In this document: positions 44,617 through 64,000 of the stretch, one piece after another | How positions within the stretch are numbered: the first letter of the stretch is position 1 | How the letters are laid out: each line of letters opens with the position of its first letter | NCBI GenBank assembly: GCA_046760785.1 | Contig: JBHIET010000007.1 | Location: 736-64,735, forward strand | Reading direction: 5' to 3' | DNA from: Anaerolineae bacterium | GTDB taxonomy: Bacteria; Chloroflexota; Anaerolineae; B4-G1 | DNA: 64,000 nucleotides | Position numbers and translations under genes: made by a program | Notes under the pieces: generated by a model | Database searches by the model: none | Seen by the model: the letters and a program-made list of their open reading frames with translations, nothing else | What the model was told of the DNA's origin: nothing

Positions 44617-44672
44617 GGGTGTGGTAGAATGATATTGTGCAATGAGGGTGTGAGTCAAGAAGGGAGGAGTTG

Positions 44673-47600
44673 ATGCCCACAGTCTCTGAGATCGAACAAG
44701 TCCTGAATGAATACGTTGAAAAGTACATTCCGGTGATGTTGCGCCAGGGATACCACCTGGTGCTGGTCAAGGGCGGGCCGGACTATCCCCACCTGCCGGA
44801 ACAATCCCACTTTGCTCACATCATCAACGGCGCGTTTGGCCTGACGCAACTGGTCAAGTTCCTGATCGAGCACAACGTGCGCGTCCCCGGGCTGGACGAA
44901 GAAACTTTCCGCAAGGCGCTGGCGCTTTTCACCGTTCACGAAGTACACAAGGATGCCGAGGTGGAGCTGCTGGGCGATTCCCAGTTCAGCATCCCCCTGG
45001 AACGGCTGCGGGAAGAGTACCAGCGCCTGGGACTGGACCAATTCGCCCCGGTGGACGAGTACCTGATGCGGGCGGCCAATGTCCACAAGCGTAGCAGCAA
45101 GCACGGCGATTTGCTGCTCAGCGATGATCCGAACGCTGCACAGCTATGGCTATGGGTGCGCATCGCCGACACCTTCGCCTCGGTCAAGACGCCGGAAGAG
45201 GCGAAGGCTTCGCTGGAGGGCTATCTGGCCGATCTGGGGCCGGCCTTCGCCCCCAAGAGTCCGCCGGGCAAGTATACACTCTATTACCACGAGATCAAGG
45301 ACGTGCGCGGTGTGCTGACCAACACCGTCCACCAGGCTGTCGCTCAACAGTTGGCGGGCGACCTGGGCTTTTTCCCGCTGCTCTACTTCGCCACGGGCAC
45401 GCTCTATCTGGGACCGGCTCAATTGGACGGTGACGCCGATGACGCGATCCCCGCCGTCGCCGAATGGGTGCTCCAATCGCTGACCCAGGGCGGTGGTGGG
45501 GACGCCATCCGCGACGGGCTGCGTCGCCAAAAGTTCGACTTTGAGCGCTACGTCTACGCCTTTGCCACAGTGAAAGACCTGCTCCAGGTCGTCCACGATG
45601 AAACGCTGACCGCCAAACCCGACGCACGGGTAGCCCTCAAGGAGATAGACGGCCTGGTCAGCAAGCGCCAGGAACTGAGCGCCGAGTGGCGGGACACGGT
45701 CGAGGAACGGTTTGGCATCCAACTGCTCGACCCCAAGGAGCACAAAACCTTCAACGAACTCTGGTCCCAGGTACGGCGCTACCTGCTCTATGTGGACACG
45801 CTGTTGCGCGACCTGAACCCGGCCGAGAACCGACTGGAGTGGTTCCTGCGTGTGTTTGCCATCCCGCAGCCTTATGCCGACAACCTGCGTCGGGAAGCCG
45901 ACATCTGGGCGAAAGGCGGGATCGGCAAGTACGTGCTGGTGATCGCCTACCACTTCCTGCGCGGCCCCGACTTTGCCGACCGCCCGGCCGAGGCCACGCC
46001 GCCGGAGCAGGTGCTGGAGCGGTTGCACCGCCGCGTGCTGGAGGCCTTTCGCCAGGTGGATACCCAGGCCGGACGGCAGGCCGCCGTGGCCGAGCTGGGG
46101 TTGCGCCAGGACCTGGAGGCGTACCTGGCCGAGCATCTGTACCTTTCCTTTGCCCCGGCCAGTCAACTGGCCGCTGACAGCCTGGCGGGCTATGTGTCGC
46201 CGAAGCGCAAGGGGCACACGGGCCAGGTGTGTTCCATCTGCAACCGGCGCAGCGAGTACGTGCAGTCCTTGCGGGCGGGCATCCTGGACGACTTTGGGCG
46301 GGTTTTTTCCAATCGGGTGCTCCCCGCCCGCGAAGCGCCCCAGGGCAACCGCCTCTGGTGCCCGGTCTGCCAGTTGGAGTTCATCTTGCGCAAGGTGATG
46401 GGCATGGGCCTGCCCTCCACTGCCCATTACAAGAACTCGCGCCGCATTTATCTCTATGTGTTGCCCACCTTCTCTTTCACCCTGGAGCACCTGCGCCTCT
46501 TCGAGCCGCTGCTGAAACCGTTCCACCGCGTGACCGGCTTGCCGGTGCGCGATTACGGCAAGGGCGATCCCGGCTTGCCGCGCTACTGGTTGGAGCATCG
46601 CGCCTTCGACCCGGATTGGGTGGAGGACTTGCAAGAGGTGTTGGAGCGCGAGGCGGACAAGATCGCCGGCTGGGGCGGACGGGGCTTTGTGGGCGAACGG
46701 GTCTCGCTGGGACGCATCACCGGCCAGCCGCACTACTACCTCATCACTTGGGAGAAAGCGGCCCGCGACACCGAACCCGACGACGCCCGCATCGCCACCC
46801 GCACCGAGGCCTGGTGCAAGGCGCTCTTCGCCGCGGCAGTCATCAGCGGGCTGACCAGTTGCAAGGTCTACGTCACCGAACGGCCTTACCTGCCGGTGGC
46901 CGACCCCGCCGAGTTGAGGGCTACCATCACCCTCGATGGTCCGCCCCCGGCGCTGCGGGGGCTGCTGGGCGGGCGCACCGACGAGGTCACGCTTTACGGG
47001 CGGGAAAAGGGAGAGCGCAGCGGCCTGGAGCGGGTGTTGGACCTGAGCGCGGCGCTGTGGGCGGTGACCGCCGACGTGCACGCACCCCAACGCAACACCA
47101 AAGACAAGCACATCTCCGGCCGGCTGGGGACGCTGAATACCTCGCCGCTGGCCGGGGCCACGTTCTACAAGGAGTATGGCCGCCTGAACGAGGGGCAATC
47201 GCCCTTTCCCACATTGACGACGGCCTGTGAGGTACTGCTGGAGGTTCAAGGAGGTGAACTGATGGACCTGGTAGAAAAGATCGCACAAAAGAGCCTGGAG
47301 ATTGCCCTGCCGCGAGGTGCATCCGGCCGGGGCAAGGCGCGGCGCTACGAACTGGTCTTCCGCGAGGCGGTCTCCGCCATGCGCCAGGCGCAAAAGATGA
47401 TCCCGGAGATGCGAGAGGCGGCCATCGGCGGGAGGCGCCCGTCGGCGCAGAGCATCGCCGAACTGAAGCGGTTGACGGCGGGCACGCTGCTCAAGGGGTT
47501 GGAGCGCCGCCAGGAGAGCAGGCGGGGCGAGATCTTTGTCCGCGCCTGGGGCGACCAACTGGGCCGGCTGGTAGGCGAGTTCGTGGACCTGCTGGTGGAC

Positions 47601-47762
47601 GAGCTCTACCTGGGCCGCGCTGGGGGCAGCTTCGCCCGCTTCCTGCGGCTGGAGAACAGCCTGGCCGATGGGATCTATTACTACACCGACCGGCACCTGG
47701 GAGAAGAGTGGGCAGCGTACAAGGCCGCCAGAAAGGAGAGCGGGGAGCAGACCAATGAGTGA
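44673..47762 (+). CDS. cas10d: Type I-D large subunit Cas10d (Csc3) with an N-terminal HD-like domain
   Basis: 1029 aa. Has H...H(E)xxHK motifs (SHFAHIING, FTVHEVHKD, RIADTF) and the Zn ribbon CSICN...CPVCQ. It lies in an operon with csc2/csc1/cas3'. A GGGAGGAG RBS precedes the ATG at 44673. Confidence 0.8.
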   Translation: MPTVSEIEQVLNEYVEKYIPVMLRQGYHLVLVKGGPDYPHLPEQSHFAHIINGAFGLTQLVKFLIEHNVRVPGLDEETFRKALALFTVHEVHKDAEVELLGDSQFSIPLERLREEYQRLGLDQFAPVDEYLMRAANVHKRSSKHGDLLLSDDPNAAQLWLWVRIADTFASVKTPEEAKASLEGYLADLGPAFAPKSPPGKYTLYYHEIKDVRGVLTNTVHQAVAQQLAGDLGFFPLLYFATGTLYLGPAQLDGDADDAIPAVAEWVLQSLTQGGGGDAIRDGLRRQKFDFERYVYAFATVKDLLQVVHDETLTAKPDARVALKEIDGLVSKRQELSAEWRDTVEERFGIQLLDPKEHKTFNELWSQVRRYLLYVDTLLRDLNPAENRLEWFLRVFAIPQPYADNLRREADIWAKGGIGKYVLVIAYHFLRGPDFADRPAEATPPEQVLERLHRRVLEAFRQVDTQAGRQAAVAELGLRQDLEAYLAEHLYLSFAPASQLAADSLAGYVSPKRKGHTGQVCSICNRRSEYVQSLRAGILDDFGRVFSNRVLPAREAPQGNRLWCPVCQLEFILRKVMGMGLPSTAHYKNSRRIYLYVLPTFSFTLEHLRLFEPLLKPFHRVTGLPVRDYGKGDPGLPRYWLEHRAFDPDWVEDLQEVLEREADKIAGWGGRGFVGERVSLGRITGQPHYYLITWEKAARDTEPDDARIATRTEAWCKALFAAAVISGLTSCKVYVTERPYLPVADPAELRATITLDGPPPALRGLLGGRTDEVTLYGREKGERSGLERVLDLSAALWAVTADVHAPQRNTKDKHISGRLGTLNTSPLAGATFYKEYGRLNEGQSPFPTLTTACEVLLEVQGGELMDLVEKIAQKSLEIALPRGASGRGKARRYELVFREAVSAMRQAQKMIPEMREAAIGGRRPSAQSIAELKRLTAGTLLKGLERRQESRRGEIFVRAWGDQLGRLVGEFVDLLVDELYLGRAGGSFARFLRLENSLADGIYYYTDRHLGEEWAAYKAARKESGEQTNE
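47262..47762 (+). CDS. cas11d: Candidate internally translated small subunit Cas11d (nested in the cas10d frame)
   Basis: A near-perfect internal SD, AAGGAGGTGA (47249-47258), lies just upstream of the in-frame ATG at 47262. The 166-aa helical product starts MDLVEKIAQKSLEIAL... Confidence 0.45.
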   Translation: MDLVEKIAQKSLEIALPRGASGRGKARRYELVFREAVSAMRQAQKMIPEMREAAIGGRRPSAQSIAELKRLTAGTLLKGLERRQESRRGEIFVRAWGDQLGRLVGEFVDLLVDELYLGRAGGSFARFLRLENSLADGIYYYTDRHLGEEWAAYKAARKESGEQTNE

Positions 47763-49968: not shown

Positions 49969-49972
49969 TTCA

Positions 49973-50452
49973 ATGGCTGAAAATCAGAAATCATCGCGGG
50001 AACAGCGTCTGCGCCGGGCTTACGAAGCCATCGAGCAGATGCAGTTGGGCGAGCGCGAAGCGGAAGTCAAACTGGCGCTCAAGGCGTTGCTGATAGCGCG
50101 AGGGTGCATTCGTCTGCCTGAGACACCGCAAGCCCGCCGCAAGACACTTCAGCGGCTCTATCCGGCACTCGTCAAGTATTCGAGAGCCTCGGAAGCGGAA
50201 ACACTGGGTGCTCTGGTAAACGACGTGATCGGTGCTCTGTCGCCCGATTGGGATTTCTCCCCCCATCGCGCTCTCGGAGACCCTGTGGAAGACATCTACC
50301 AGGAGAGCGAAACGGCCAAACGGGCCAGAGAGCTCCTTAAGGAAGAGACCGTCCCTCTGGTCATCTTGATGAAAAAGATCTACCAAAGCTTCATCGAACC
50401 CGAAGAAGCGACTGAGGAAGAACAGGCAGAAGAGGAGGCCAGCCATGCATAA
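49973..50452 (+). CDS. Small all-helical protein, Cas11-like small subunit candidate
   Basis: 159 aa, preceded by a GGGAGG RBS. It is predicted helical by composition, with an acidic tail. Its position between the large subunit and a Cas7-like gene supports the call. Confidence 0.5.
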   Translation: MAENQKSSREQRLRRAYEAIEQMQLGEREAEVKLALKALLIARGCIRLPETPQARRKTLQRLYPALVKYSRASEAETLGALVNDVIGALSPDWDFSPHRALGDPVEDIYQESETAKRARELLKEETVPLVILMKKIYQSFIEPEEATEEEQAEEEASHA

Positions 50453-51437
50453 CCTGAAACTGTACGCCTTGTATCAGGCCAAGCAACCCATCATTCACAC
50501 TGAGGAGACCATCGGCAACATCTCCAAGATCAAAAAGATGCGCGTCATTCACGATGGCAAGCCTGTACCGGTGCCGACCCTCTCCGGCAACAGCTTCCGC
50601 GGCCAGTTCCGCGACATCCTGGCGGACCAGATGTTCGCCATTCTGACCAACGGTGGTGCCAGCCGTGTCAAACTCCCCCCTGACCATTACGGCGTTATCT
50701 ACAGCGGCGGCGTGATGAAGGAGGGCTCCAAGATGGGGGAGCAGATGAAGGCGATGGCTGACGCCATTCCTATGCTGCGACTGATGGGCTCGGCCTTTGG
50801 CAACGTGATGCTTCCATCAAAGTTGGCCGTGACCCACATCATTCCCTACGCGGTGGAAACGCAAGCCGTTGTCCAATCTACGGTGAATGCGCTGCCGGAC
50901 GAAGGGCGTGCCTTGTTGCCGGCGGAGCCACCCAGTCGCGGTGATTTGCTGTTCAACGATGGCCCACTGACCCGCAAGGATGACACCAAAGACCTGACCA
51001 AACAGCGCTACGCCGAGACAGAAGCAGACCTGGGCCAGGACGAAGAACGCACCCGCCGCCAGATGATCTACTACGTCGAGTGTATTCCTGCCGGAACGTT
51101 CCTGCTCCAGGAGATGTACAGCAAATATCCCCTGGACGATCTGGAACTGGGCTGCTTCTTCGATGGCCTGCTCACTTTTCTCCAGGAACCCAGCCTGGGT
51201 GGACGCAGCGCAGCAGGTTATGGGCAGGTACTGGCAAGGTACTGGGTACAATTGGAAGGCAAAGACCCGTTCGAGTTGACATCGGAGCAGGCGATCACAC
51301 TTCCCCAGCCGGTGCAGGATGCTATTGAGCAATACCGAAAGTGCGTGGAGAAACAGCAACAAGCTTTTCTCGGCGCGTTGAAAGCCAAAACCATTTCTGA
51401 GGAGGCGCAAGATGACGCCCCCGACTCCACGGAGTAG
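50445..51437 (+). CDS. RAMP protein, Cas7-like (Csf2/Csm3-like backbone subunit candidate)
   Basis: 330 aa. Contains TLSGNSFRGQFRD (compare the RAMP motif SGxSxRGxxR), LMGSAFGN, and the G-rich loop SLGGRSAAGYGQV. There is an 8-nt overlap with the previous gene. Confidence 0.65.
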   Translation: MHNLKLYALYQAKQPIIHTEETIGNISKIKKMRVIHDGKPVPVPTLSGNSFRGQFRDILADQMFAILTNGGASRVKLPPDHYGVIYSGGVMKEGSKMGEQMKAMADAIPMLRLMGSAFGNVMLPSKLAVTHIIPYAVETQAVVQSTVNALPDEGRALLPAEPPSRGDLLFNDGPLTRKDDTKDLTKQRYAETEADLGQDEERTRRQMIYYVECIPAGTFLLQEMYSKYPLDDLELGCFFDGLLTFLQEPSLGGRSAAGYGQVLARYWVQLEGKDPFELTSEQAITLPQPVQDAIEQYRKCVEKQQQAFLGALKAKTISEEAQDDAPDSTE

Positions 51438-52506
51438 GAGTAAAAGAGCTTTTCCTCTGAACGAGGAAGCCTGGCAACTGCTCAATGATACTGCCAGGGC
51501 AGTATCTTACGACCTGAGCGACGATACCGTCTACGAGCTGCGTCTGCGCCTGCAAACGCCCGGCATCTTTGCCCTGTACAAGGCCGACATCCCGGCTCCG
51601 GGACTGCCCATGCTGGATGGCTTCTTAAAGTTCGTGGCCTTTCAACAAGCGATGGACCAGGTAATGCGGAAAAGGCCAGACTTGACCAATGACTTGCTGT
51701 GGCAATGGAACCTGGCGCTTCGTGACACCCGGTACTGGATAGACTTTTGTATCCCCATTCGCCAAGAGACACTCAATAGCGGCATTGTGCTCTATGACTG
51801 TTCGGTCGGTTTGCCGGTGACTCCAGAAGATGACGTTCTCTATCCGACGGGCGCCTTTTTTGCCTGCGGGGGTAACCTGACCACCTACCCATCTGAAGAA
51901 AAAGGGCCGGCCGACCAGATTGCCTTGCGTCGCCGCTCTGTAGAACCAGTTTATCGACCCTTTGAATTGACCGGTAAATTGAACCCCCAGAGTGGTTCCA
52001 GAAAGGCGTTGGACAACCGTATCTATTACGCTCTCACCCAGGAATACACCTTCTACTTCCGAGGGGACAAAGATGGCGTCAGGCAATTATTGCACTTTGC
52101 TCTTCAGCAAGGGGTCGGCATCGGGAAAAAGACTTCGTTGGGGTATGGGCGCATTGCCCAGCTTGAGATTCAACCTGCCAACCAGTGCGTTACTCTCGGA
52201 CACGACATCGGTTTGCCTGGTGTGCCCCGGATAGCCTTGCTCAAGAACGTTCCTTATCAGGAACTCCAACGCCGAAGCATCCGGCAGAGTGGTGAGTTTG
52301 GGCTTGTTCAGGTAAAAGAAGGGAATCAGTGGAAGGACATCCTTACGCAGAATGAACGGGACCAAAACGAGAGGTTGTTCGGTGCCCGCGAGTTCAGCCT
52401 GGCCTCGCCCATCGAGACCTTTGATTGTTACTATCCGCCCTATTGGCGACGTGAAGGTCGCACGCAGGTGCTGAGATACGGCACTCTGCTCATACCACGC
52501 TCGTAA
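51412..52506 (+). CDS. RAMP protein, Cas5-like (Csf3-like candidate)
   Basis: 364 aa. Contains PMLDGFLKFVAF near the N-terminus and the G-rich loop GVGIGKKTSLGYGRI. A GAGGAGG RBS lies inside the upstream gene. Confidence 0.55.
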   Translation: MTPPTPRSRSKRAFPLNEEAWQLLNDTARAVSYDLSDDTVYELRLRLQTPGIFALYKADIPAPGLPMLDGFLKFVAFQQAMDQVMRKRPDLTNDLLWQWNLALRDTRYWIDFCIPIRQETLNSGIVLYDCSVGLPVTPEDDVLYPTGAFFACGGNLTTYPSEEKGPADQIALRRRSVEPVYRPFELTGKLNPQSGSRKALDNRIYYALTQEYTFYFRGDKDGVRQLLHFALQQGVGIGKKTSLGYGRIAQLEIQPANQCVTLGHDIGLPGVPRIALLKNVPYQELQRRSIRQSGEFGLVQVKEGNQWKDILTQNERDQNERLFGAREFSLASPIETFDCYYPPYWRREGRTQVLRYGTLLIPRS

Positions 52507-52520
52507 AGAAGGAGGTAAAA

Positions 52521-53525
52521 ATGACTCTGAAGACTTTACAACCCTACGCCAGCTATTTCGTTCCCGAGATCCCGCGCACACCCACCAATCGCTACGCCAG
52601 CATCATCCTGCTGCGGGAGACCAAGTCCTACGCCATCTTCACCACCGAGGGCGGCGAGCAGCAGGACGTGGAAGAGACCCCCGCCGGCCCGGCCCACACC
52701 GAGCCGACCACCCGCCTGGTGATGTTCAAGCGCAAGCAGGTGGCCCCGGAGCGACGCACCGGCAAGGCATTGCTGCGGCAATACGGTGTCTTTCCCTATG
52801 CCATCCAGGACGGACGGGTGGTCTATGGCGAAGAGGCGCTTCAGGCAAGGAAGCACTACGAGGACTGCTACCTCACCGAGGGTCTCTGCACCCACTGCCC
52901 CGACTGCCTGATCTACGGCTACGCCGCCATCGAGGCCGAAGGCGCCCGCAAAGCTCGCTTGATGACCGACACCTGCTTCACCGTCCGCCCCTACGAGATC
53001 ATCCAGAAGCAGGTCAAGTTCAACGTCATTGACGAGGCCCGGCACACCTCCGGCACCATCACCGAGTACGACTACACCACGCCGGGCGTCTTTCTCCCCG
53101 CCGTGGAGACGACGGTGGACCTGACTGCCGACGAGTTCGCCTACGTGCTGGGCAACGTCCTGCGCACCACCCGCTACGGCAAGGAGAGCACCCGCCAGGG
53201 CTTTGTGCGCAACCACATCCTGGCCATCGCCTTCTCCGACGTGGAACTCTTTGCCAACCTGGAGTTCACCCAGGCCCTCTACGACGCCCTGGTTGGCGCC
53301 GGCAAGGACCTGGCCGCCGAGGGCCTCTCGCTGGCCGACTTCCAACAGCACGCCGAGGCCGTCATTCAGCGGTTGACGGAGCAGTTGACCGGGCGGCTCA
53401 CCCTGGTCACCGGAGAGGAACTGGCGGGCATCCTGGAGGACGTGCGCGCCCTGAACCAGGACGAGGAGCGTCTGGCCGGGTTCCTACGAGACCTGAACAC
53501 GGCTTCGGCGTCGTTTGTGGTGTGA
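52521..53525 (+). CDS. csc2: Type I-D Cas7 (Csc2)
   Basis: 334 aa. Contains the LCTHCPDCLIYGYA Cys cluster and a Csc2-like body (FNVIDEARHTSGTITEYD, TRYGKESTRQGFVRN). AAGGAGG RBS. Confidence 0.8.
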   Translation: MTLKTLQPYASYFVPEIPRTPTNRYASIILLRETKSYAIFTTEGGEQQDVEETPAGPAHTEPTTRLVMFKRKQVAPERRTGKALLRQYGVFPYAIQDGRVVYGEEALQARKHYEDCYLTEGLCTHCPDCLIYGYAAIEAEGARKARLMTDTCFTVRPYEIIQKQVKFNVIDEARHTSGTITEYDYTTPGVFLPAVETTVDLTADEFAYVLGNVLRTTRYGKESTRQGFVRNHILAIAFSDVELFANLEFTQALYDALVGAGKDLAAEGLSLADFQQHAEAVIQRLTEQLTGRLTLVTGEELAGILEDVRALNQDEERLAGFLRDLNTASASFVV

Positions 53526-53659
53526 GGTCGCACGGCGGTTGAAACCGCATGCTGCGGGGTGCGAAACCGCCTGCGGCGGTTGGGGGGGCTGCGCCGGCAG
53601 GCTTCGCCGCCCCCAGCCCGCGAATTCATTCGCCGGGCAGAAAGAGAAGGAGCATCAGT

Positions 53660-54406
53660 ATGCACATCTACCGCATCGCCATCGAGCTGCTCGACTACAT
53701 CTTTTATGCCACCACCGAACGGGGCAAGGTCTACGAGACAGGGGCCTTCATCCACAACTATGCCCTGGCCTACGCCCTGGGCCTGGGGCGGGGAGAGACC
53801 TACACCTACGCCAACCTGAAACAGAAACCGCACTACCTGGAGGAATTGACGCCGCTGAACGGTCGCCTCTACCTCACCCCCGCTGCGCCCCGGCAAGTGG
53901 CCCACCGTCTGGTGCAGTGGAACACCATCCGCGAGGGGTATGCCTTTCCGGGCAAGGAACCGTCGGTGGGCTACCCCGACTGGGGCTTTGCCCGCATGCT
54001 GCGGCCTGGCTCTCGTTTTCTGTTCTACCTGCTTGCGCCCGACCCTGCCGCCTTGCCCGATGCACCTGCGCTCCGTGATCTGACAGCCGGACGGCCGATA
54101 CGGATACGGCTGGGCAAGTTCCCCGGCAAGGCCCGCTTGCAGGCGCAGCAGGCGGACAGGGTAGTGACGCGAGAGGGGCCTTTCCAGACGACGGCCATGC
54201 TCAACTGGCGCGACCTGGAGACCGACCCCCAGGTGTGCGACGTGGTCGCCGCCAGCCTGCCCACCCGCCTGCTCAGTCGCGCCCACTTTGCGGAAGGACC
54301 GTCCTACGAGGCTCATTTTGGCGATGACCGGGTTCGGCTACCAGTGCGGATGCGCTTCCTGGCCCGGCCGCCGGAAACACGTCGTCGCGCAAGGAGTCGC
54401 CGATGA
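53660..54406 (+). CDS. csc1: Type I-D Cas5 (Csc1)
   Basis: 248 aa, starting MHIYRIAIELLDYIFYATTERGKVYETGAFIHNYALAYALGL (Csc1 signature as I recall it). AGAAGGAG RBS. Confidence 0.75.
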   Translation: MHIYRIAIELLDYIFYATTERGKVYETGAFIHNYALAYALGLGRGETYTYANLKQKPHYLEELTPLNGRLYLTPAAPRQVAHRLVQWNTIREGYAFPGKEPSVGYPDWGFARMLRPGSRFLFYLLAPDPAALPDAPALRDLTAGRPIRIRLGKFPGKARLQAQQADRVVTREGPFQTTAMLNWRDLETDPQVCDVVAASLPTRLLSRAHFAEGPSYEAHFGDDRVRLPVRMRFLARPPETRRRARSRR

Positions 54407-56511
54407 ACCCGTTGACGGTGGAGGTCGGCCCGCTGGCCTACGCCCAAACCGACGAGCCGTGGATCGGCGACTACCGGCCCTACCTCTACCAGAGCCGCGT
54501 ATACCGGGCCGTGCAGGAAGCGTTGACGGGGCGAGAGACGCGTTGTCTCTTCCTGGTCACGCCCACCGGCAGCGGCAAGACGCTGGCCAGCTACGCCTAC
54601 ACCATCAACCACGGCACACCGGCCTTTGGCGTCTACCCCACCAACGAACTGATCCGCGACCAGGAGCGCTCGCTCAAGGACTGGCTGGACCCCGGCGACG
54701 ATTACCGGTTGCTGCGCATTGACAGCCGGCAGCTCGACCAGTGGCAGGATGGCCTCGACCTGCCGCAACACGCTCAGACCTTTGAGCGGCTGATGCACTG
54801 GCGGCCGACCATTCTCACCAACCCCGACATCCTGTTCTATACTTTCTTCGGGCTATACCGGGGACCGCGAGGGTTGAGCCAACGGCTTTTTGCACTGCTG
54901 GGGCAGTACCGGCTGTTCATCTTTGACGAATTCCACCTCTACAACGTCAAGCAGATGGCCGATGTGGCCTTTTTTGCCGGGACGCTGCACGCCATCAACC
55001 CAGGCTACGGGCGCGTCTTCCTCTTCGCCTCGGCCACGCCCGCATCACCGGCCCTGCCCTGGCTGCGCGACCGCTTGCACCTGCCGGTGGAGGTGGTTGA
55101 AGGAGAACCGTCGGACGCGCCGGAGGCCCGCACCATCGCCCATCCGCTGCAACTGACCCTGCTGCCCGCCGACCTGCGCCGCTGGAAAGGGGTGGAGACA
55201 CTGCTGGAGTACCTGCCGGCGCTGGAGCCATTCTTCCAAGAGCACCCCCAGGCCCGCCTGGTGACCATCCTCGACTCGGTGGCCGGGGCCATCGCCACCG
55301 CCCAGGCCCTGCGCCAGCGGTTCCCCGACAAAGCAGTGGGCGAAGTGCACGGCTTCAGTTCCGACCAGGAGCGAGAGGAGGCCTTGCGCCGACCCTTCAC
55401 CGTCGGCACCTCCACCATCGAGGTGGGCATTGACTTCAAGGACGAGGCGGAAAAGGACGTGCTGATCTTTGAGGCGCGCACGGCCAGCCAGTTCATCCAG
55501 CGCTTCGGACGGCTGGCACGACACGAGAAGGCCCTCGCCATCCCCAACCGCGTCATCGCCCTGGTGCCGGAGTACGTCTACCACTTTTTGGACGACAAAC
55601 TGAGCAACGGGCAGACCCTCTCACGCTACGATTTGTACTCGCTGGTCGAGGAGGGCTACACCAAACCGGAGGATTTCGAGCGCTACCTGCGCACCCACGC
55701 CGCCGCCGAGTTCCAGGCCGCCCGCAAGAACGCCCAGTGGCCCTTCCAGCCCGACGACCGGCCGCGCATCGAACAGGGACTGGCGGAGACCATCACCGCG
55801 CTGACGGGCAAGACCGATGGGCAAGCGTGGTCGCTGTACCGTCGTTACCAGGACGAGGAGCGCATCCTGGCCCCCTTGCTCACCTTTCGCGGCAGCGGGT
55901 TCGAAGCCGCCATCCTGGACGAGCGCGGAACAGACGCCGGCTTTCCGGCCAAACGCTACAACCTGATGTTCCTCCTGCGGCGCGGCATCTTCACCGAACT
56001 GGATGAGGAAGAATACCTGGCGCGGCTGGAAGCACTGGCCGACCACTGGCCGGAAGACGCCGCTCGCGAGCGGCGCTACGGCAAGCGCATCGGGCGCAGG
56101 CCGGAGGACCTGTTGGGCGTTTGCGGATTCTTCAGGCTGACCGGCCTGCTGGACAAGGGCCGCAAGGTCTGGTTTGAGATGAGCGAAGATGCTGTCTGGG
56201 GACGCAAGGCACGGGTGGCGGTGATTGACGGGTTGGATATAGTGACTGACCCAGACATGCCCTTGAGGCGGCTCAACCGCCACCTGCGCAAAAAACAAGT
56301 CGTCGCCTGGTTCGTGGACCGTCATCCGGCCTCGATCAAATTGGGCCGCGCCCTGCCACCTCTGTTCGAGATACACGAACTGCGCCTCCGGCGGCCCGGC
56401 GGTGGCCTCAGCCCCACCGTGTGGAGCATTGCCTTCAACCAGGACGCCTTTTTTGTGGATAGCCTGGGATGGCACAGAGAAAGCCGAGAAGATCGGGCGA
56501 TCATCCTGTGA
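54403..56511 (+). CDS. cas3: Cas3' helicase (no HD domain)
   Basis: Contains Walker A TPTGSGKT, DEFH box IFDEFH and motif VI QRFGRLAR. ATGA overlap with csc1. Confidence 0.9.
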   Translation: MNPLTVEVGPLAYAQTDEPWIGDYRPYLYQSRVYRAVQEALTGRETRCLFLVTPTGSGKTLASYAYTINHGTPAFGVYPTNELIRDQERSLKDWLDPGDDYRLLRIDSRQLDQWQDGLDLPQHAQTFERLMHWRPTILTNPDILFYTFFGLYRGPRGLSQRLFALLGQYRLFIFDEFHLYNVKQMADVAFFAGTLHAINPGYGRVFLFASATPASPALPWLRDRLHLPVEVVEGEPSDAPEARTIAHPLQLTLLPADLRRWKGVETLLEYLPALEPFFQEHPQARLVTILDSVAGAIATAQALRQRFPDKAVGEVHGFSSDQEREEALRRPFTVGTSTIEVGIDFKDEAEKDVLIFEARTASQFIQRFGRLARHEKALAIPNRVIALVPEYVYHFLDDKLSNGQTLSRYDLYSLVEEGYTKPEDFERYLRTHAAAEFQAARKNAQWPFQPDDRPRIEQGLAETITALTGKTDGQAWSLYRRYQDEERILAPLLTFRGSGFEAAILDERGTDAGFPAKRYNLMFLLRRGIFTELDEEEYLARLEALADHWPEDAARERRYGKRIGRRPEDLLGVCGFFRLTGLLDKGRKVWFEMSEDAVWGRKARVAVIDGLDIVTDPDMPLRRLNRHLRKKQVVAWFVDRHPASIKLGRALPPLFEIHELRLRRPGGGLSPTVWSIAFNQDAFFVDSLGWHRESREDRAIIL

Positions 56512-56536: not shown

Positions 56537-57409
56537 ATGAGCGCGAACGACGATATGCTCTACTCTATCGTCCTCATCCTCACCCCCACGCGCGCGTCGA
56601 GCGTCCGCGCCACGATGGGGTATCAGGCCCACGCTGCCTTCCTGAAGACGGTGCGCGAATCGGACCCCGCCCTGGCCGAGGTGCTGCACATGCCCGATAT
56701 GCCTTGCCGGCCGTTTACCGTGTCGCCCTTGCGAGGAACGCCGCGGCCTCAGAATGGGCGTATCCGCCTTTCGCCGGAAGAGACCTACTGGCTGCGCTTT
56801 ACCATCCTTTACCCGCCCATTTTCGAGCAGTTCATGCGCCGCTTTCTGCGGGGGGAAGGACGCCCCGTCGTCCGGCTGGGTCACGCCGTGCTGCTCATCA
56901 AAGAGATTCTCGCCACACCCGGAAGCCATCCCTGGACCGGATACACCTCGTGGGGAGAGATCGCGTCCGGCGCTCGGCCAGAGGCCGAGATCACGCTCGA
57001 CTTTGTCTCTCCCACTGCTTTTGGGTTTGGGCAAAAGGATTGGGGCAAGAAGGTGGTCGTGTTGCCAGAACCGGACGCGGTTTTCGGCAGCCTGGCCCGC
57101 TCGTGGAACAACCTGGCCCCGCCACCACTGCAAGTGGAGCGGGATGCGTTGAAGATCTATGTGGAGGAACACGTCGTCGTCAAGCGCATCAGTGATCTGC
57201 GCACACGGATGTTGCACTTCCGTAAGTCGCCCCAGGTGGGCTTCGTGGGACAGGTGACCTACGGCCTGATGGCGGAGAACGAGGCTGCCCGCTGTCAACT
57301 CAGCGCGCTGGCCGATTTTGCCTTCTACGCCGGCGTGGGGATGAAGACGACGATGGGGATGGGGCAAACCCGCCGGTGTGCTGACCAATATGGTCTACGA
57401 CGTCAGTGA
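56537..57409 (+). CDS. cas6: Cas6 crRNA endoribonuclease
   Basis: 290 aa with the C-terminal G-rich loop GVGMKTTMGMGQ. Start at MSANDDMLYSIVLIL after GGAGAGGGA. Confidence 0.8.
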   Translation: MSANDDMLYSIVLILTPTRASSVRATMGYQAHAAFLKTVRESDPALAEVLHMPDMPCRPFTVSPLRGTPRPQNGRIRLSPEETYWLRFTILYPPIFEQFMRRFLRGEGRPVVRLGHAVLLIKEILATPGSHPWTGYTSWGEIASGARPEAEITLDFVSPTAFGFGQKDWGKKVVVLPEPDAVFGSLARSWNNLAPPPLQVERDALKIYVEEHVVVKRISDLRTRMLHFRKSPQVGFVGQVTYGLMAENEAARCQLSALADFAFYAGVGMKTTMGMGQTRRCADQYGLRRQ

Positions 57410-57436: not shown

Positions 57437-57706
57437 TTGCGTGACCAGATCCGCGGAGCAGCCGGTTCGACTATGCACAACGTCGCCGAAGGATTCGATG
57501 CTGGCTCGGACGCCGAATTCATCCGCTTTTTGAAGTATGCCCGCCGTTCGGCCAGCGAGGTGCAATCGCAGCTCTACATCGCCCTCGACCGGCGCTACGT
57601 GACCCAGGATCAGTTCCAGTGCATCTACGACCAGGCCACCTCGGTCAAGAAGCCGATCAACGCCTTCATCGGTTACCTGAAAAAGTCCCGTCGGACATCC
57701 AAATGA
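57437..57706 (+). pseudogene. N-terminally truncated four-helix-bundle protein (23S rRNA intervening-sequence / Avd-like family)
   Basis: LRDQIRGAAGSTMHNVAEGF...EFIRFLKYARRSASEVQSQLYIA matches the central and C-terminal helices of the family. About 30 N-terminal residues are missing. Only a TTG start is available, and the ORF is in the same frame as cas6, nine codons past its TGA stop. Confidence 0.6.
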
Positions 57707-58335
57707 CGACCAAGCGACCACCAGACCAAATAGCCACCAGACCAATGAAGCAGCCCGACTATCTGCCGATCTCAATGCTGAATCAACTGGAATACTGCGA
57801 GCGCCGCTTCTGGCTGATGTACGTCTGCGGCGAGATGGAGGTCAACGCCCCGGTGCTGGAGGGCATCCAGCAACACGAGCGGGCGCACGCTGGCGGCGTC
57901 GAGCGGGATGGCGAGACCACCATTCATCGCCGCGTCTACCTGTGGTCCGATAGGCTGCGCGTCTCCGGTTTTGCCGACGTGGTAGAGGAGCGGGCGGAGG
58001 AACTGGCGCCGGTGGAGTACAAGCACGGCCGGATGGGGCGCTGGCTCAACGATCACATCCAGTTGTGTGCCCAGGCGATGTGCCTGGAGGAGCGGACGGG
58101 GCGGCAGGTGCAGCAGGGGGCGATCTTTTACTGGCGTTCGCGGCGGCGGATGCCGGTGGAATTCACCCCCGGACTACGGATCCGCACCGAAGAAGCGATC
58201 GCGCGGGCCTTCGAGTTATTGGAAGCAGGCCAGATGCCGCCGCCTCTCGACCGTCGGGCCAAGTGCCACGACTGCTCGTTGGAGACCATCTGCCTGCCCC
58301 GTGAGGTTCTATTCCTCTCGAAGGAGCCGGCCTGA
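57703..58335 (+). CDS. cas4: Cas4 (RecB-like nuclease with a 4Fe-4S cluster)
   Basis: Contains YCERRFW (N-terminal Cys), DVVEE...VEYKHG, and the C-terminal CHDCSLETIC. The start is ATG 57703 (ATGA overlap) or ATG 57745. Confidence 0.9.
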   Translation: MTTKRPPDQIATRPMKQPDYLPISMLNQLEYCERRFWLMYVCGEMEVNAPVLEGIQQHERAHAGGVERDGETTIHRRVYLWSDRLRVSGFADVVEERAEELAPVEYKHGRMGRWLNDHIQLCAQAMCLEERTGRQVQQGAIFYWRSRRRMPVEFTPGLRIRTEEAIARAFELLEAGQMPPPLDRRAKCHDCSLETICLPREVLFLSKEPA

Positions 58336-59432
58336 TGGCGCAACTCCAGACGTGGGAGGATGGCATGGCTACTCTCTATCTGACCGAACCGCGCTCGCTG
58401 GTCAAGAAAGACGGCGACACGCTTGTGGTACACATCCCGGAGGATAAGGAGCGCGGCACATCGAAACGGAAGGTGCGCGTGCCTCTCATTAAGGTCACCC
58501 AGGCCGTCGTCTACGGCGACGTGACGCTCACCAGCCCGGCACTGGCGGCGCTCCTGGAGCAGCGGGCCGATATTTGTTTCTGCTCCTATTATGGACGTTT
58601 CCGGGGGCGGCTGGCGCCGCCGCTGAGCAAGAACAGTCTGATCCGGCTGGAGCAGCACCGAGCCCACAATGACCCAGTGCGGGCATTTACCCTGGCACAG
58701 GCCTTCGTGCGCGGCAAGCTGGCTAATATGAGAGCCATGCTGCTGCGAGCCAAGCGCAAGCGGGATGACCCGGCCATTGCCCAGGCAGTGGCGTCGCTCA
58801 AAGGCGTGCTGGATCAGGTAGATGAACTGGAACCCGAGGCCGCGGCCGCGCCGCTCGATCCCTCCCATCCTCAGGCAGATAGCGCCATCGGCACACTTCT
58901 GGGATTAGAGGGAGCGGGAACGGCCTTTTACTTCGGCGTTCTGGGGCAGTTGTTAAAGGGAGACTGGAGCTTTAAGCGGAGGCAGCGTCGCCCCCCGCGC
59001 GATCCCGTCAATGCACTTCTCTCGTTCGGATACGTGCTGCTGATGAACCAGGTCGCGTCAGCGATCAGCATCGTTGGCCTGGACCCCTACGTGGGATTTC
59101 TTCATTCGTCGCAATTCGGCAAGCCAGCGCTGGCGCTGGACGTGATGGAGACGTTTCGCCCGCTGGTCGTGGATTCGGTGGTACTTACCCTGCTGAACAA
59201 CGGTATGTTGACGCAGCGCGACTTCCGCGAGGAACTGGGGGCTTACCGTCTGACAGACAAAGGGCGACGCACGTTTCTCGCCAAATTCGAAGAGCGACTG
59301 GACACCGCGATTCAACATGCGGTCTTCGGCTACAAGGCGACCTACCGGCGGAGCCTGGAACTGGAGGTACGATTGGTCGCCAAGTGGCTGACGGGGGAGA
59401 TTCGTAAGTTTAAGCCATTCGTGGTAAGATAG
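58335..59432 (+). CDS. cas1: Cas1 integrase
   Basis: 365 aa. Contains LEGAGTAFYF, DPVNALLSFGY and DPYVGFLH. TGATG overlap with cas4. Confidence 0.95.
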   Translation: MAQLQTWEDGMATLYLTEPRSLVKKDGDTLVVHIPEDKERGTSKRKVRVPLIKVTQAVVYGDVTLTSPALAALLEQRADICFCSYYGRFRGRLAPPLSKNSLIRLEQHRAHNDPVRAFTLAQAFVRGKLANMRAMLLRAKRKRDDPAIAQAVASLKGVLDQVDELEPEAAAAPLDPSHPQADSAIGTLLGLEGAGTAFYFGVLGQLLKGDWSFKRRQRRPPRDPVNALLSFGYVLLMNQVASAISIVGLDPYVGFLHSSQFGKPALALDVMETFRPLVVDSVVLTLLNNGMLTQRDFREELGAYRLTDKGRRTFLAKFEERLDTAIQHAVFGYKATYRRSLELEVRLVAKWLTGEIRKFKPFVVR

Positions 59433-59731
59433 TGATGCAGCGCGGGAAGCCAGAACGTACACTCTATGTCATTGCCTACGATATTCCCAGCGACCGCCGC
59501 CGCACCAAAGTGCACAAGACGCTGTGCGGGTTCGGGGAGTGGACTCAGTACAGCCTCTTCGAGTGTCATCTGACGGACAAAGAGCGGGTGGCCCTACGCG
59601 GCAAACTGGATGAGCTTCTGAAGCCAGAAGAGGACAGCGTGCGTTTCTACCACGTCTGCGCGGCGTGCGTGGCAAAAGCAGAAACCATTGGATCGGAGAA
59701 ACCTGTGGAGAAGGACGTGTTCATCGTCTAG
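59432..59731 (+). CDS. cas2: Cas2
   Basis: Contains LYVIAYDIPSDRRRTKVHKTL...YSLFEC. The start is GTG 59432 or ATG 59435. Confidence 0.9.
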   Translation: MMQRGKPERTLYVIAYDIPSDRRRTKVHKTLCGFGEWTQYSLFECHLTDKERVALRGKLDELLKPEEDSVRFYHVCAACVAKAETIGSEKPVEKDVFIV

Positions 59732-60135
59732 TAGGGGCGATCCCTTGCGGTCGCCTGGTAGGGGTGCACTTATGCCACGATAAATCCCGAAAACCCGCGC
59801 TTTTTTGACAGCCTGCGGGCCTGCGAGCGGTGAAGCATCCCTAGCGGATCTAGGAACCGCTCGCAGTGGACGAATGAAGGGGCAAAGCGCCACATGTATG
59901 GGGTCGGCGACAAGGTGATAGCAGATGTGGGGGAGAAAGTGATGAAGGTGATGGACAGAGCATGCGCGAGTAGTCAGCAAACGGGCACAGGGCAGCGAGC
60001 CGCTCGCAATGTGAGGGAAGGTGGGAAGAGATGGCTATTTCCAGGGCCAAAACAGGCACATTGTGGGGCGCTGAGGGCACAAAAGCGGGGAAAAACGGCC
60101 CGCAGTGGGGCACCGTGCCCATAGGGACGTGAGGA
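59732..60135 (+). promoter_or_regulatory. CRISPR leader
   Basis: 404 nt of noncoding sequence between cas2 and the first repeat. It contains an 11-bp perfect inverted repeat, CTGCGAGCGGT (59821-59831) / ACCGCTCGCAG (59856-59866). I could not place the promoter confidently. Confidence 0.6.
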
Positions 60136-63100
60136 GCTCAACAAAACAGAATCCCGACTGAGGGATTGAAACAGCGTGCTTGGCGGCTTTCGCCCCAGGC
60201 GCTTCGGGCTCAACAAAACAGAATCCCGACTGAGGGATTGAAACTCTGCAACTCGCGATGCGACATACAAACTTGACCTCGCTCAACAAAACAGAATCCC
60301 GACTGAGGGATTGAAACCGGGGACTATGCTGTGCTTCGATGTGCAGCCCCCGAGCTCAACAAAACAGAATCCCGACTGAGGGATTGAAACGAGAGCAATC
60401 AACTCTTATCTAAGGAATCCTGGGAAGCTCAACAAAACAGAATCCCGACTGAGGGATTGAAACCGCGAATCACAGGCAAAAACGAATATCAGATTATCGG
60501 CTCAACAAAACAGAATCCCGACTGAGGGATTGAAACAGTTCCACTTCTCCCGTGATATCTGATTCCTCCAGCAGCTCAACAAAACAGAATCCCGACTGAG
60601 GGATTGAAACAATGTAAATCTTATTATGGAGGAATCTGTGCCGGAAGGCTCAACAAAACAGAATCCCGACTGAGGGATTGAAACCACCGTGGTAGGCCTC
60701 TCTTTCGAGAGCGAGAGCAGCTCAACAAAACAGAATCCCGACTGAGGGATTGAAACTGCCCGAATTCGAGATATCGATTACCTCGAATTCCGCTCAACAA
60801 AACAGAATCCCGACTGAGGGATTGAAACGGGGAAATTGAATCTCGAATCCTATCAGATGGAGAAGCTCAACAAAACAGAATCCCGACTGAGGGATTGAAA
60901 CTGGTTGCGGGAAGGGGAGAGATTGAGGGCTGATTGGGCTCAACAAAACAGAATCCCGACTGAGGGATTGAAACATAGGCTATCCCCTTAGCCAGGAATC
61001 CGAAGAGCGTAGCTCAACAAAACAGAATCCCGACTGAGGGATTGAAACTGATTGGGCTCGGCAGTGCTTACCTTAGTTTTCAGGCTCAACAAAACAGAAT
61101 CCCGACTGAGGGATTGAAACAATTTTCCTTCCCCACCCGCTTGATCAAAATCAAAGCTCAACAAAACAGAATCCCGACTGAGGGATTGAAACTTGGGACT
61201 GGGCTACCTCCAAAGTGCGCGCGAAAGGCTCAACAAAACAGAATCCCGACTGAGGGATTGAAACCTGAGTTGGATGAATACGGAGAAAACAGGATAGACA
61301 GCTCAACAAAACAGAATCCCGACTGAGGGATTGAAACCAAATAAAACCAATCGGAATCTCTGATTACCCCCCAGCTCAACAAAACAGAATCCCGACTGAG
61401 GGATTGAAACAAGTCCCCCTCTCCCCGCAACAAAAATTGATAACAGCTCAACAAAACAGAATCCCGACTGAGGGATTGAAACTTATTGGTAGTCAAAATG
61501 AAACGCCGCACCCCCCACAGCTCAACAAAACAGAATCCCGACTGAGGGATTGAAACGCCGCCAGAATAATATCTATCCGGCGTCGTGGGCCATGCTCAAC
61601 AAAACAGAATCCCGACTGAGGGATTGAAACAATAATGCACCTTGAGCGCATAGAAGAAATCGACATAGCTCAACAAAACAGAATCCCGACTGAGGGATTG
61701 AAACGAGGGCTGATTGGTCGGGAATTGCGGACGGTGAACGGGCTCAACAAAACAGAATCCCGACTGAGGGATTGAAACTCGAAGATAGCCTCCGGCGGCC
61801 GATCCGGCCAATGGGCTCAACAAAACAGAATCCCGACTGAGGGATTGAAACTAGCCTTTTGATATTCATTTCATCCTATCCTATTAGCTCAACAAAACAG
61901 AATCCCGACTGAGGGATTGAAACTGGAATAATATCATCAAGAGGAGGAAAAATGACCAGGCTCAACAAAACAGAATCCCGACTGAGGGATTGAAACAATA
62001 CGGAAAAGAGGATAGAAACATAATGGCTACTAGCTCAACAAAACAGAATCCCGACTGAGGGATTGAAACCTCTCCCACAACCCTGCCTTATGGGTTGCCT
62101 ATCAGGCTCAACAAAACAGAATCCCGACTGAGGGATTGAAACGAAACCGCTGATTACGCCGAATCGCTCTATCCCAGCTCAACAAAACAGAATCCCGACT
62201 GAGGGATTGAAACCCGCCCTTGTCCAGTCGGGCCTTCCCTTAGCCATTAGCTCAACAAAACAGAATCCCGACTGAGGGATTGAAACGCAGCAACGTCTTC
62301 CCTCAGATATTCATCCTGCCAAGCTCAACAAAACAGAATCCCGACTGAGGGATTGAAACCGAGCGAAAGCCCCTCTATATCTCATCTCCCACAATGCTCA
62401 ACAAAACAGAATCCCGACTGAGGGATTGAAACGCCGTTTATCCGCCGAGGCCGTCATATCCGCTGCGGCTCAACAAAACAGAATCCCGACTGAGGGATTG
62501 AAACCGTACAACGCCGTGATGCGAGCGCTGGAGCGGCTGAAGCTCAACAAAACAGAATCCCGACTGAGGGATTGAAACGGTAATGCCCGGCAATTATTGC
62601 CCGGCAATACCAGGCTCAACAAAACAGAATCCCGACTGAGGGATTGAAACAAGGCTATCGTCATTTTCATCGCTTGCTCCCGCCTGGCTCAACAAAACAG
62701 AATCCCGACTGAGGGATTGAAACAATCCTGCCGCAGAGCGATACGAGAAGCGGGCAGAGGCTCAACAAAACAGAATCCCGACTGAGGGATTGAAACGGCG
62801 TGCTGGGCAGCCTTCGCGCCAGGCGCTTCAGGCTCAACAAAACAGAATCCCGACTGAGGGATTGAAACTCATATCGCCACGGGGGCAGCTGCCGTAATGG
62901 AGCAGCTCAACAAAACAGAATCCCGACTGAGGGATTGAAACCAAAGGGCTGTTGAAAGCAGGCCTGCTCGATTCGTAGCTCAACAAAACAGAATCCCGAC
63001 TGAGGGATTGAAACCGGCGATCCTGAACTTGCATTGCATCTCGACAACTTGCTCAACAAAACAGAATCCCGACTGAGGGATTGAAACAGCTTCTATACGA

Positions 63101-64000
63101 TGAAGCGCTACGATGCGCTAAGGCTCAACAAAACAGAATCCCGACTGAGGGATTGAAACACCACGCTCATAAAATGGGGCTTCCCTACCAAGAAGCTCAA
63201 CAAAACAGAATCCCGACTGAGGGATTGAAACAATACTGAGAAAAGAGGATAGACACATAATGGCTACGCTCAACAAAACAGAATCCCGACTGAGGGATTG
63301 AAACTCCGGCGCGATCTCCCTTGCATTTTTAGGAATGCCTTTGCTCAACAAAACAGAATCCCGACTGAGGGATTGAAACATTCCAGGCATCCGTCAATGC
63401 ATAATTTTCTGGAAGCTCAACAAAACAGAATCCCGACTGAGGGATTGAAACTATCACCCCGCGATGGAGCATCTGGAAGCCCATCGAGCTCAACAAAACA
63501 GAATCCCGACTGAGGGATTGAAACTTCGCCTGTGATCCGGGCGCGGAAACAATGGTGCTTGGCTCAACAAAACAGAATCCCGACTGAGGGATTGAAACCT
63601 TCAATTCGGGAGAACACAACGAGGCGGTGAATCGGCTCAACAAAACAGAATCCCGACTGAGGGATTGAAACATATAAATTTGAAGGATGCCAATCTGCAG
63701 AATGCCGGCTCAACAAAACAGAATCCCGACTGAGGGATTGAAACTAGATTCTGGGAGCTACTTCAGAAAAGCGTGATCGGCTCAACAAAACAGAATCCCG
63801 ACTGAGGGATTGAAACTCGACGTAGAAATAATTCATTTTCCCAGCCTTTTGGCTCAACAAAACAGAATCCCGACTGAGGGATTGAAACATAGAGATTATG
63901 GGGGGGATCACCGATCCGGCGGAGGCTCAACAAAACAGAATCCCGACTGAGGGATTGAAACACATAATATCTCCCATCGTTATATGAGGGCGATGCTGGC
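60136..64000 (+). CRISPR. CRISPR array with 53 complete identical repeats, continuing beyond the window
   Basis: The 37-nt repeat is GCTCAACAAAACAGAATCCCGACTGAGGGATTGAAAC, with an internal stem AATCCC/GGGATT and a 3' ATTGAAAC tag. The first repeat is 60136-60172 and the last complete one is 63925-63961. Spacers are 34-38 nt. A probable 54th repeat starts at 63999. Orientation is set by the ATTGAAAC end and the cas2-side leader. Confidence 0.99.

Follow-up and report, generated by a model that had tools for sequence, protein, structure and literature searches.

The window analysed here is a stretch of 64,000 nt from an Anaerolineae bacterium (contig JBHIET010000007.1), and its right-hand part carries a type I-D CRISPR array. 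Two spacers of this array, the leader-proximal spacer 1 and spacer 37, resemble each other closely. Based on the results given below, one coding protospacer was probably sampled twice, in diverged variants; it would belong to a co-occurring virus-like element. The pair adds one more case to a phenomenon already known, and the I-D array that contains it is long but otherwise ordinary. The features on which the comparison rests are as follows.

60136..64000, plus strand: CRISPR array, 53 identical 37-nt repeats (GCTCAACAAAACAGAATCCCGACTGAGGGATTGAAAC) with spacers of 34-38 nt
59732..60135, plus strand: leader, 404 nt, from the cas2 stop codon to the first repeat
60173..60207, plus strand: spacer 1, AGCGTGCTTGGCGGCTTTCGCCCCAGGCGCTTCGG, leader-proximal and youngest
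62797..62831, plus strand: spacer 37, GGCGTGCTGGGCAGCCTTCGCGCCAGGCGCTTCAG, with a protospacer located in the co-occurring invader

The spacer pair and its protospacer

The array is cut by the window end, and the array counts refer to the part inside the window. According to the array parse, all 53 repeats are identical, with no change across 1961 nt. The array is transcribed from left to right. This reading is based on the 3′ end of the repeat (ATTGAAAC), on a 6-bp hairpin close to that end on the plus strand and on the order cas2, leader, array. Leader-proximal units are the youngest in an array, and the left-to-right reading therefore makes spacer 1 the youngest unit and the younger of the pair, as the first-pass annotation had held.

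The same parse reproduced the sequences and coordinates of the two spacers as first annotated. They are co-linear, of equal length and identical at 29 of 35 positions; the mismatches fall at positions 1, 9, 13, 16, 22 and 34, and five of the six share one phase (congruent to 1 modulo 3). The similarity greatly exceeds chance expectation: in 20 shuffled spacer sets, the highest ungapped score was 7, compared with 17 for the pair, and the pattern common to both spacers has no further copy in the window (0 expected). The five in-phase changes had been described as synonymous, and they are so in both frames having that wobble position. The off-phase change reads L/W in the plus-strand frame and K/Q in the minus-strand frame. 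The GC contents of spacers 1 and 37 (0.71 and 0.74) are the highest in the array, those of the other spacers being about 0.5. Along the array, 35 spacers separate the two. No self-target was found within the window for any spacer with up to 7 mismatches allowed.

The source of the pair was sought in four public hydrothermal-vent metagenome runs (X1-X4, SRR29324585, SRR29324586 and SRR29324587 among them), whose Logan contigs were aligned onto the array. The cas region is present in all four runs. Beyond short array unitigs, the runs contain high-depth contigs that match single spacers and then continue into unrelated sequence. The protospacer of spacer 37 was found on non-array contigs in every run (1870, 1082, 1720 and 4365 bp in X1-X4, with depths of 74, 28, 16 and 97.5), which align at 62796-62829 with 2 mismatches, i.e., at 32 of 34 positions. 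Its 5′ flank is ...CATTTGTC, and the sequence before the site reads ...CGGGCGCGGTCAATCTCGCCAGCCATTTGT-C, giving GTC as the protospacer adjacent motif (PAM), which fits the PAM GTN published for type I-D (PMC10212523). On the 3′ side, the sequence goes on with CGTCACC..., and the flank recovered after the site is CGTCACCGCCCTGATCCCCCGCTCCATATC. The proposal that both spacers address the same protospacer of a foreign element is supported, with the site lying in co-occurring high-depth contigs next to GTC.

At position 34, the invader has C, spacer 37 has A and spacer 1 has G, and the three alleles are synonymous in both wobble-sharing frames. Around the site, 94 nt were reconstructed, and both frames with wobble positions in the phase of the mismatches are open over this length. 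On the minus strand, the frame reads DMERGIRAVTEAPGAKAAQHADKWLARLTAP at the site (peptide ...TEAPGAKAA(K/Q)HAD...). We favour this frame because it shares its register with the open minus-strand frame at protospacer 12 (same contig, at a distance of 1.28 kb) and has the same direction as three called, tightly packed genes on the invader contig L206. The spacer-37 protospacer most likely lies within a coding region.

The search of databases and metagenomes proposed in the first-pass annotation succeeded in part. The vent runs yielded the site of spacer 37 and none for spacer 1, while the viral, genome and Joint Genome Institute (JGI) collections held no true protospacer. Scans of IMG/VR and of the GTDB genomes with wobble-degenerate patterns of the pair and with exact invader fragments returned nothing, and the translated site had no match by tblastn in phage and plasmid collections. 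Four matches from the JGI metagenome scan were rejected as being at chance level (22-26 of 35 positions identical, with 21 positions forced by the pattern).

Origin of the pair

We suggest the following course of events. Spacer 37, the older one, and spacer 1, the younger, would have been taken up on two separate occasions. Both would derive from one PAM-flanked 35-nt protospacer present in two diverged variants of the element, and this protospacer would most likely lie inside a protein-coding gene, on the strand opposite to the spacer. The variants would differ chiefly at synonymous third positions, having diverged under purifying selection, and most of the array would be directed against this one co-occurring, virus-like mobile element. 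We infer in this scheme the coding frame at the site, the source of spacer 1 and the order of events.

The coincidence of the two acquisitions at one site can be explained by the small number of PAM-flanked sites, the small target genome and its very dense sampling, at least 27 of the 53 spacers falling on 11.8 kb; at this density, about 6-40% of such arrays should contain a same-site re-hit. If 28-40 spacers are placed on 12-40 kb at GTN sites alone, one expects 0.16-0.53 pairs with an identical site (P = 0.14-0.41); under the looser NTN rule, the probability of a same-site re-hit is 0.04-0.12. No special mechanism is needed. An all-against-all comparison of the spacers also revealed that the pair is not unique, since spacers 16, 26 and 43 and spacers 11 and 22 are likewise variants or overlaps of single loci. 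Further sets of the same pattern involve spacers from the vent population (spacer 51 with popD, spacer 22 with popH). The window spacers concerned are listed here.

60902..60937, plus strand: spacer 11, protospacer overlapping that of spacer 22 by 13 nt, within the invader gene L206:87-440
61705..61741, plus strand: spacer 22, overlapping spacer 11 and the population spacer popH at the same invader locus
61265..61300, plus strand: spacer 16, overlapping the locus of spacers 26 and 43 (offset 12, 22 of 24 positions identical to spacer 43)
61997..62032, plus strand: spacer 26, variant of spacer 43 (28 of 34 identical, with a 1-nt indel), covering the ribosome-binding site and ATG of L206:87-440
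63232..63267, plus strand: spacer 43, sharing its invader locus with spacers 16 and 26

The first-pass annotation had interpreted spacer 1 as a record of an evolved or escape variant, and the escape reading is not supported. CRISPR escape mutations are typically single changes in the PAM or the seed. The differences within the pair are mostly silent and lineage-like, and the abundant invader matches the old spacer at 32 of 34 positions, not spacer 1. The six differences look like standing divergence between viral lineages and not like CRISPR escape.

Several points weigh against two acquisitions from one coding protospacer. The phase bias taken alone is marginal (P = 0.053 for at least 5 of 6 mismatches in one phase). 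Over the 94 nt, no stop codon interrupts four of the six frames, and one on the plus strand likewise shares its register with the region of protospacer 12, so that the minus-strand frame is favoured and not proven. The gene holding the protospacer was not recovered, and searches with the peptides of all four open frames gave no match in the protein database, in PHROGs or in collections of phages and plasmids. The suggested origin in a protein-coding gene is supported by the 94 nt open in the predicted frames and by the analogous case of popH, where six of seven differences are silent. No invader variant matching spacer 1 occurred in any collection scanned or in any of the four runs; the present invader is closer to the old spacer and gives no alignment to spacer 1 at ≥80%. 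Finally, the 21 protospacer 5′ flanks collected from the present invader comprise 5 GTN, 7 ATN, 1 CTN and 8 others, and with 5 of 21 flanks being GTN a PAM rule for the window system is therefore tentative.

The published type I-D PAM is 5′-GTN-3′ on the non-target strand (PMC10212523). T at position -2 was found in 13 of the 21 flanks, and in 10 of the first 13 collected (P = 2.5e-4). The protospacers of window spacers with a GTN flank (spacers 2, 27, 37 and 44) all have at least 3 mismatches, and the perfect or near-perfect matches, those of spacers 10 and 12, have the flanks ATT and ATG. Two readings suit this pattern, a relaxed -3 position and escape through a G-to-A change in the PAM, and the flanks may have mutated since acquisition. 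Of the protospacer gene and its PAM, both of which the first-pass annotation had marked for identification, only the PAM (GTC) could be read.

A possible, though not a likely, alternative is that the array was updated by priming. The CRISPR RNA of spacer 37 would have bound a mismatched variant, and the I-D complex would have stimulated uptake from that replicon by Cas1-Cas2-Cas4, including that of the same protospacer in its changed form, as spacer 1. An older, partially matching spacer does exist, with six mismatches that include seed position 1 (29 of 35 identical), and partially mismatched targets are known to prime rather than interfere in types I-E and I-F. Moreover, the invader has three tandem, same-strand protospacer pairs whose members are 14-16 nt apart (spacer 8 to spacer 7, spacer 3 to spacer 38, spacer 45 to spacer 20). 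The corresponding spacers are placed in the window as follows (protospacer gaps on the invader: 14, 15 and 16 nt).

60611-60719: spacers 7 and 8
60318-60353 and 62869-62904: spacers 3 and 38
63380-63414 and 61557-61593: spacers 45 and 20

Under uniform placement, such spacing has P ~1e-4, or ~0.009 if any spacing is allowed. In the array, spacer 7 stands next to spacer 8, and the overlapping spacer pairs are all same-strand. Local or primed acquisition may have left the tandem spacing as its trace. Against this stands that, as PMC10212523 states explicitly, priming has never been shown for type I-D and counts there among the open questions. Neither strand is preferred overall (on the 7466-bp invader contig, 10 protospacers are plus and 9 minus), and the enrichment of same-strand pairs within 60 nt is only mild (P = 0.08), the protospacer map behind the clustering and strand tests being incomplete. 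A chance re-hit of the same site is expected in ~4-40% of such arrays, and spacers 1 and 37 lie 35 spacers apart. It is unlikely that the array as a whole is a natural record of I-D priming, with uptake favoured 14-16 nt downstream of, or overlapping, targeted protospacers (the sets 11/22 and 16/26/43 included). If true, this would provide in-situ support for I-D priming together with a predicted spacing signature.

Quite unlikely is an origin of spacers 1 and 37 from two distinct elements (for instance two different viruses, or one virus and one plasmid) with a conserved homologous gene in common. A nucleotide divergence of 17%, almost all of it silent, would be large within the strains of one virus, the spacer-1-type allele is not among the invader contigs, and the exceptional GC richness of both spacers suggests a conserved or atypical gene. 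However, at other loci of the invader, spacers and contig differ to a similar extent (popH 7/36, spacer 22 6/37, popD 7/35), which indicates that the invader population itself spans this range, and a second element was not detected. The exactly co-linear, equally long spacers could also suggest a duplicated repeat-spacer unit whose copy then mutated, which is excluded for practical purposes by the contrast between 0 substitutions over the 53 repeats (1961 nt) and 6 over a 35-nt spacer, by codon-phased, synonymous changes for which in-array mutation gives no reason, and by neighbouring spacers that are not duplicated.

The invader and the arrays of the vent population

In X4, two contigs of 7466 bp (104.5x) and 4365 bp (97.5x), 11.8 kb in all, carry protospacers for at least 27 of the 53 window spacers. 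Spacers 2, 29, 42 and 50 match other contigs. The invader has a depth of 97-104x in X4 compared with ~10-20x over the host cas/leader region (ratio ~5-10); the two depths are about equal in X2, and the ratio is below 1 in X3. As this depth varies independently of the host, the invader is a separate replicon.

Using fragments of other protospacers as queries, we recovered an invader protein (P0001) and the 1-kb contig L206, which has the three co-directed genes mentioned above and does not have the spacer-37 site. The peptides and open reading frames of L206 and the invader gave no significant Pfam or PHROG family, and no relative of P0001 was found in IMG/VR. The structure predicted for P0001 is of low confidence (pLDDT 60), and its best fold matches are uncharacterised proteins of uncultured viruses, and tail-type beta-sandwiches. 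These matches give a weak hint that the element may be viral.

The invader genes offer a direct parallel to the spacer pair. The population spacer popH differs from the invader gene L206:87-440 at 7 sites, six of which are third positions and all six synonymous; for popK, both mismatches to L206 (2/2) are synonymous third-position changes. Spacers 26 and 43, and partly spacer 16, cover the ribosome-binding site and start codon of L206:87-440 (at L206:59-96). In the non-coding part, substitutions and an indel of 1 nt set spacers 26 and 43 apart, both mutually and from the invader. The population arrays repeatedly archive diverged, mostly silent variants of invader genes.

These arrays are heterogeneous. 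No contig with spacer 1 was found in any of the four runs, spacer 2 appeared only as a partial match to the invader and never as an array unit, and spacers 1, 2 and 13 of the window are without an array unitig in any run. Most window spacers are missing from X4. At least 12 spacers that are not in the window follow the identical repeat in the runs; one population spacer (TCCACGTAGTAGCAATTATTTTCCCCAGCCTTTTG) is a co-linear variant of spacer 51 with 7 mismatches, and another (CGATTGGTCGGGGATTGTGGATGGAGAGCGACTTGA) overlaps spacer 22. Since the population holds many spacers that the window does not, the absence of spacer 1 is no proof of its recency. The depth of repeat k-mers is ~100-200 times that of the host, which implies further arrays or strains. 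The exact repeat was not found in GTDB representative genomes. Related repeats are present in Anaerolineae, Chloroflexus and cyanobacteria, and their arrays have no spacers in common with that of the window.

Some ends of the invader contigs deserve a separate remark. At the start of invader contigs stands the CRISPR repeat, whole or in part, and then a spacer that matches perfectly; the contig ends fall within further protospacers with perfect matches. The start of the 7466-bp contig (window 61374-61445, repeat and spacer 18) was considered as a repeat borne by the invader and was rejected; it is most likely a de Bruijn-graph chimera, because L206 begins in the same way with a part of the repeat and a spacer (positions 1-26) and the X4 contig is continuous at that point. 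Taken at face value, such contig starts would mimic a solitary repeat carried by the invader. Two further repeat-like flanks were noticed. Protospacer 14 (window 61115-61157), in the middle of the 7.5-kb contig, is preceded by TGAAAC, the last 6 nt of the repeat, and the alignment of spacer 46 (63445-63488) runs 7 nt into the repeat; these flanks have a probability of ~1% by chance.

The type I-D locus and its relatives

A complete type I-D locus, as judged from profile matches of its predicted proteins, lies upstream of the array. The calls of the adaptation genes (cas4, cas1d and cas2) were taken from Logan contigs.

44670..47762, plus strand: cas10d (large subunit), PADLOC Cas10_Id 1.2e-46, residues 44-1006, nearly full-length
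47668-49968, plus strand: 766-residue protein, PDB "Cas10IVc" match over 65 residues only, E = 2.8e-5
between the 766-residue gene and Csf2, plus strand: 170-residue open reading frame without a match, Cas11-like by position
50445-51437, plus strand: Csf2/typeIV_Cas7, 8e-47
51412-52506, plus strand: Csf3/typeIV_Cas5, 2e-18
52521-53525, plus strand: csc2/cas7d, NCBIfam equivalog Csc2 2e-61, 207.8 bits (cutoff 38)
53549-54406, plus strand: csc1/cas5d, NCBIfam equivalog Csc1 1.5e-31, 109.6 bits (cutoff 41.4)
54403-56511, plus strand: cas3′, TIGR03158 cas3_cyano 5e-55, 186.9 bits (cutoff 69.1)
56537-57409, plus strand: cas6d, PADLOC Cas6d 2e-41
57473-57706, plus strand: 77-residue open reading frame (PF05635) between cas6d and cas4, kept in Logan contigs of two runs
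57745-58335, plus strand: cas4, NCBIfam 8.6e-38
58335-59432, plus strand: cas1d, NCBIfam cas1_CYANO 1.8e-121, 405 bits (cutoff 385)
59435-59731, plus strand: cas2, NCBIfam 1.5e-16

A gene for a WYL regulator is also found in the locus. The family PF05635 comprises 23S rRNA-intervening-sequence proteins with a four-helix bundle. Directly after the cas2 stop codon, a 36-nt stretch (TAGGGGCGATCCCTTGCGGTCGCCTGGTAGGGGTGC, 59733-59768) was observed that also occurs in each run on two other contigs, with different flanks; this makes it either a small dispersed repeat or a terminator-like element that is shared. No promoter of the sigma-70 consensus was found in the leader (59732..60135). The host is a member of the Chloroflexota, Anaerolineae-like; its FtsK protein shows up to 84% identity to those of Anaerolineales metagenome-assembled genomes.

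The four genes between cas10d and csc2 (47668-52506, plus strand) resemble a type IV-C effector module placed inside the I-D operon. Their order fits that of type IV-C, which comprises a cas10-like large subunit (HD), a cas11-like gene, csf2 and csf3 (PMC8175902). As it comes with neither an array nor adaptation genes, the module presumably shares the I-D array and Cas6.

The locus resembles the known type I-D systems, namely CRISPR1 of Synechocystis sp. PCC 6803, TiD of Microcystis and the I-D system of Sulfolobus islandicus, in having cas10d, csc2, csc1, cas3′, cas6d, cas4, cas1d and cas2, and also in its 37-nt repeat ending in GAAAC, its spacers of ~35 nt and the GTC flank of the spacer-37 protospacer, which fits GTN (PMC10212523). 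It differs from them in its host, a vent member of the Chloroflexota, in the type IV-C-like module between cas10d and csc2, and in ATN flanks that are as frequent as GTN in the present invader.

Archived versions of one protospacer with silent differences are a textbook trace of host-virus co-existence, described since 2008-2009. In the Synechococcus mats of Yellowstone, viral variants of a protospacer in a coding gene differ from the spacer silently or conservatively (Heidelberg et al. 2009, PMC2612747). Spacers 1 and 37, as well as popH and the invader gene, show the same silent pattern, but in the mats one variant was in the array and the others were in the virome, whereas the window has both variants in one array. 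Repeated sampling of one protospacer within a population has been reported for other environmental arrays (PMC4814470, PMC10370329). Those cases are mainly reverse-complement pairs or imperfect matches to one phage, unlike the same-strand, co-linear and wobble-diverged pair described here. Primed adaptation is established in types I-E, I-F, I-B and I-C (cited via PMC10212523). The window system shares with these an older, partially matching spacer, a later acquisition from the same replicon and, less clearly, a local clustering of protospacers, but does not show their strand bias.

By itself, the pair matters little. Its value lies in the combination of a long I-D array with a nearly complete, high-coverage target from the same samples and with many sets of variant spacers. 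Beside the pair, the most interesting features of the window are the type IV-C-like module in the I-D operon and the patterns of tandem spacing and PAM. The combination of array, target and spacer sets makes up a good natural data set for I-D priming, for PAM tolerance at position -3 and for the persistence of a small virus under more than 27 spacers. The tandem-spacing signal, if upheld, would give a concrete prediction for experiments on I-D priming.

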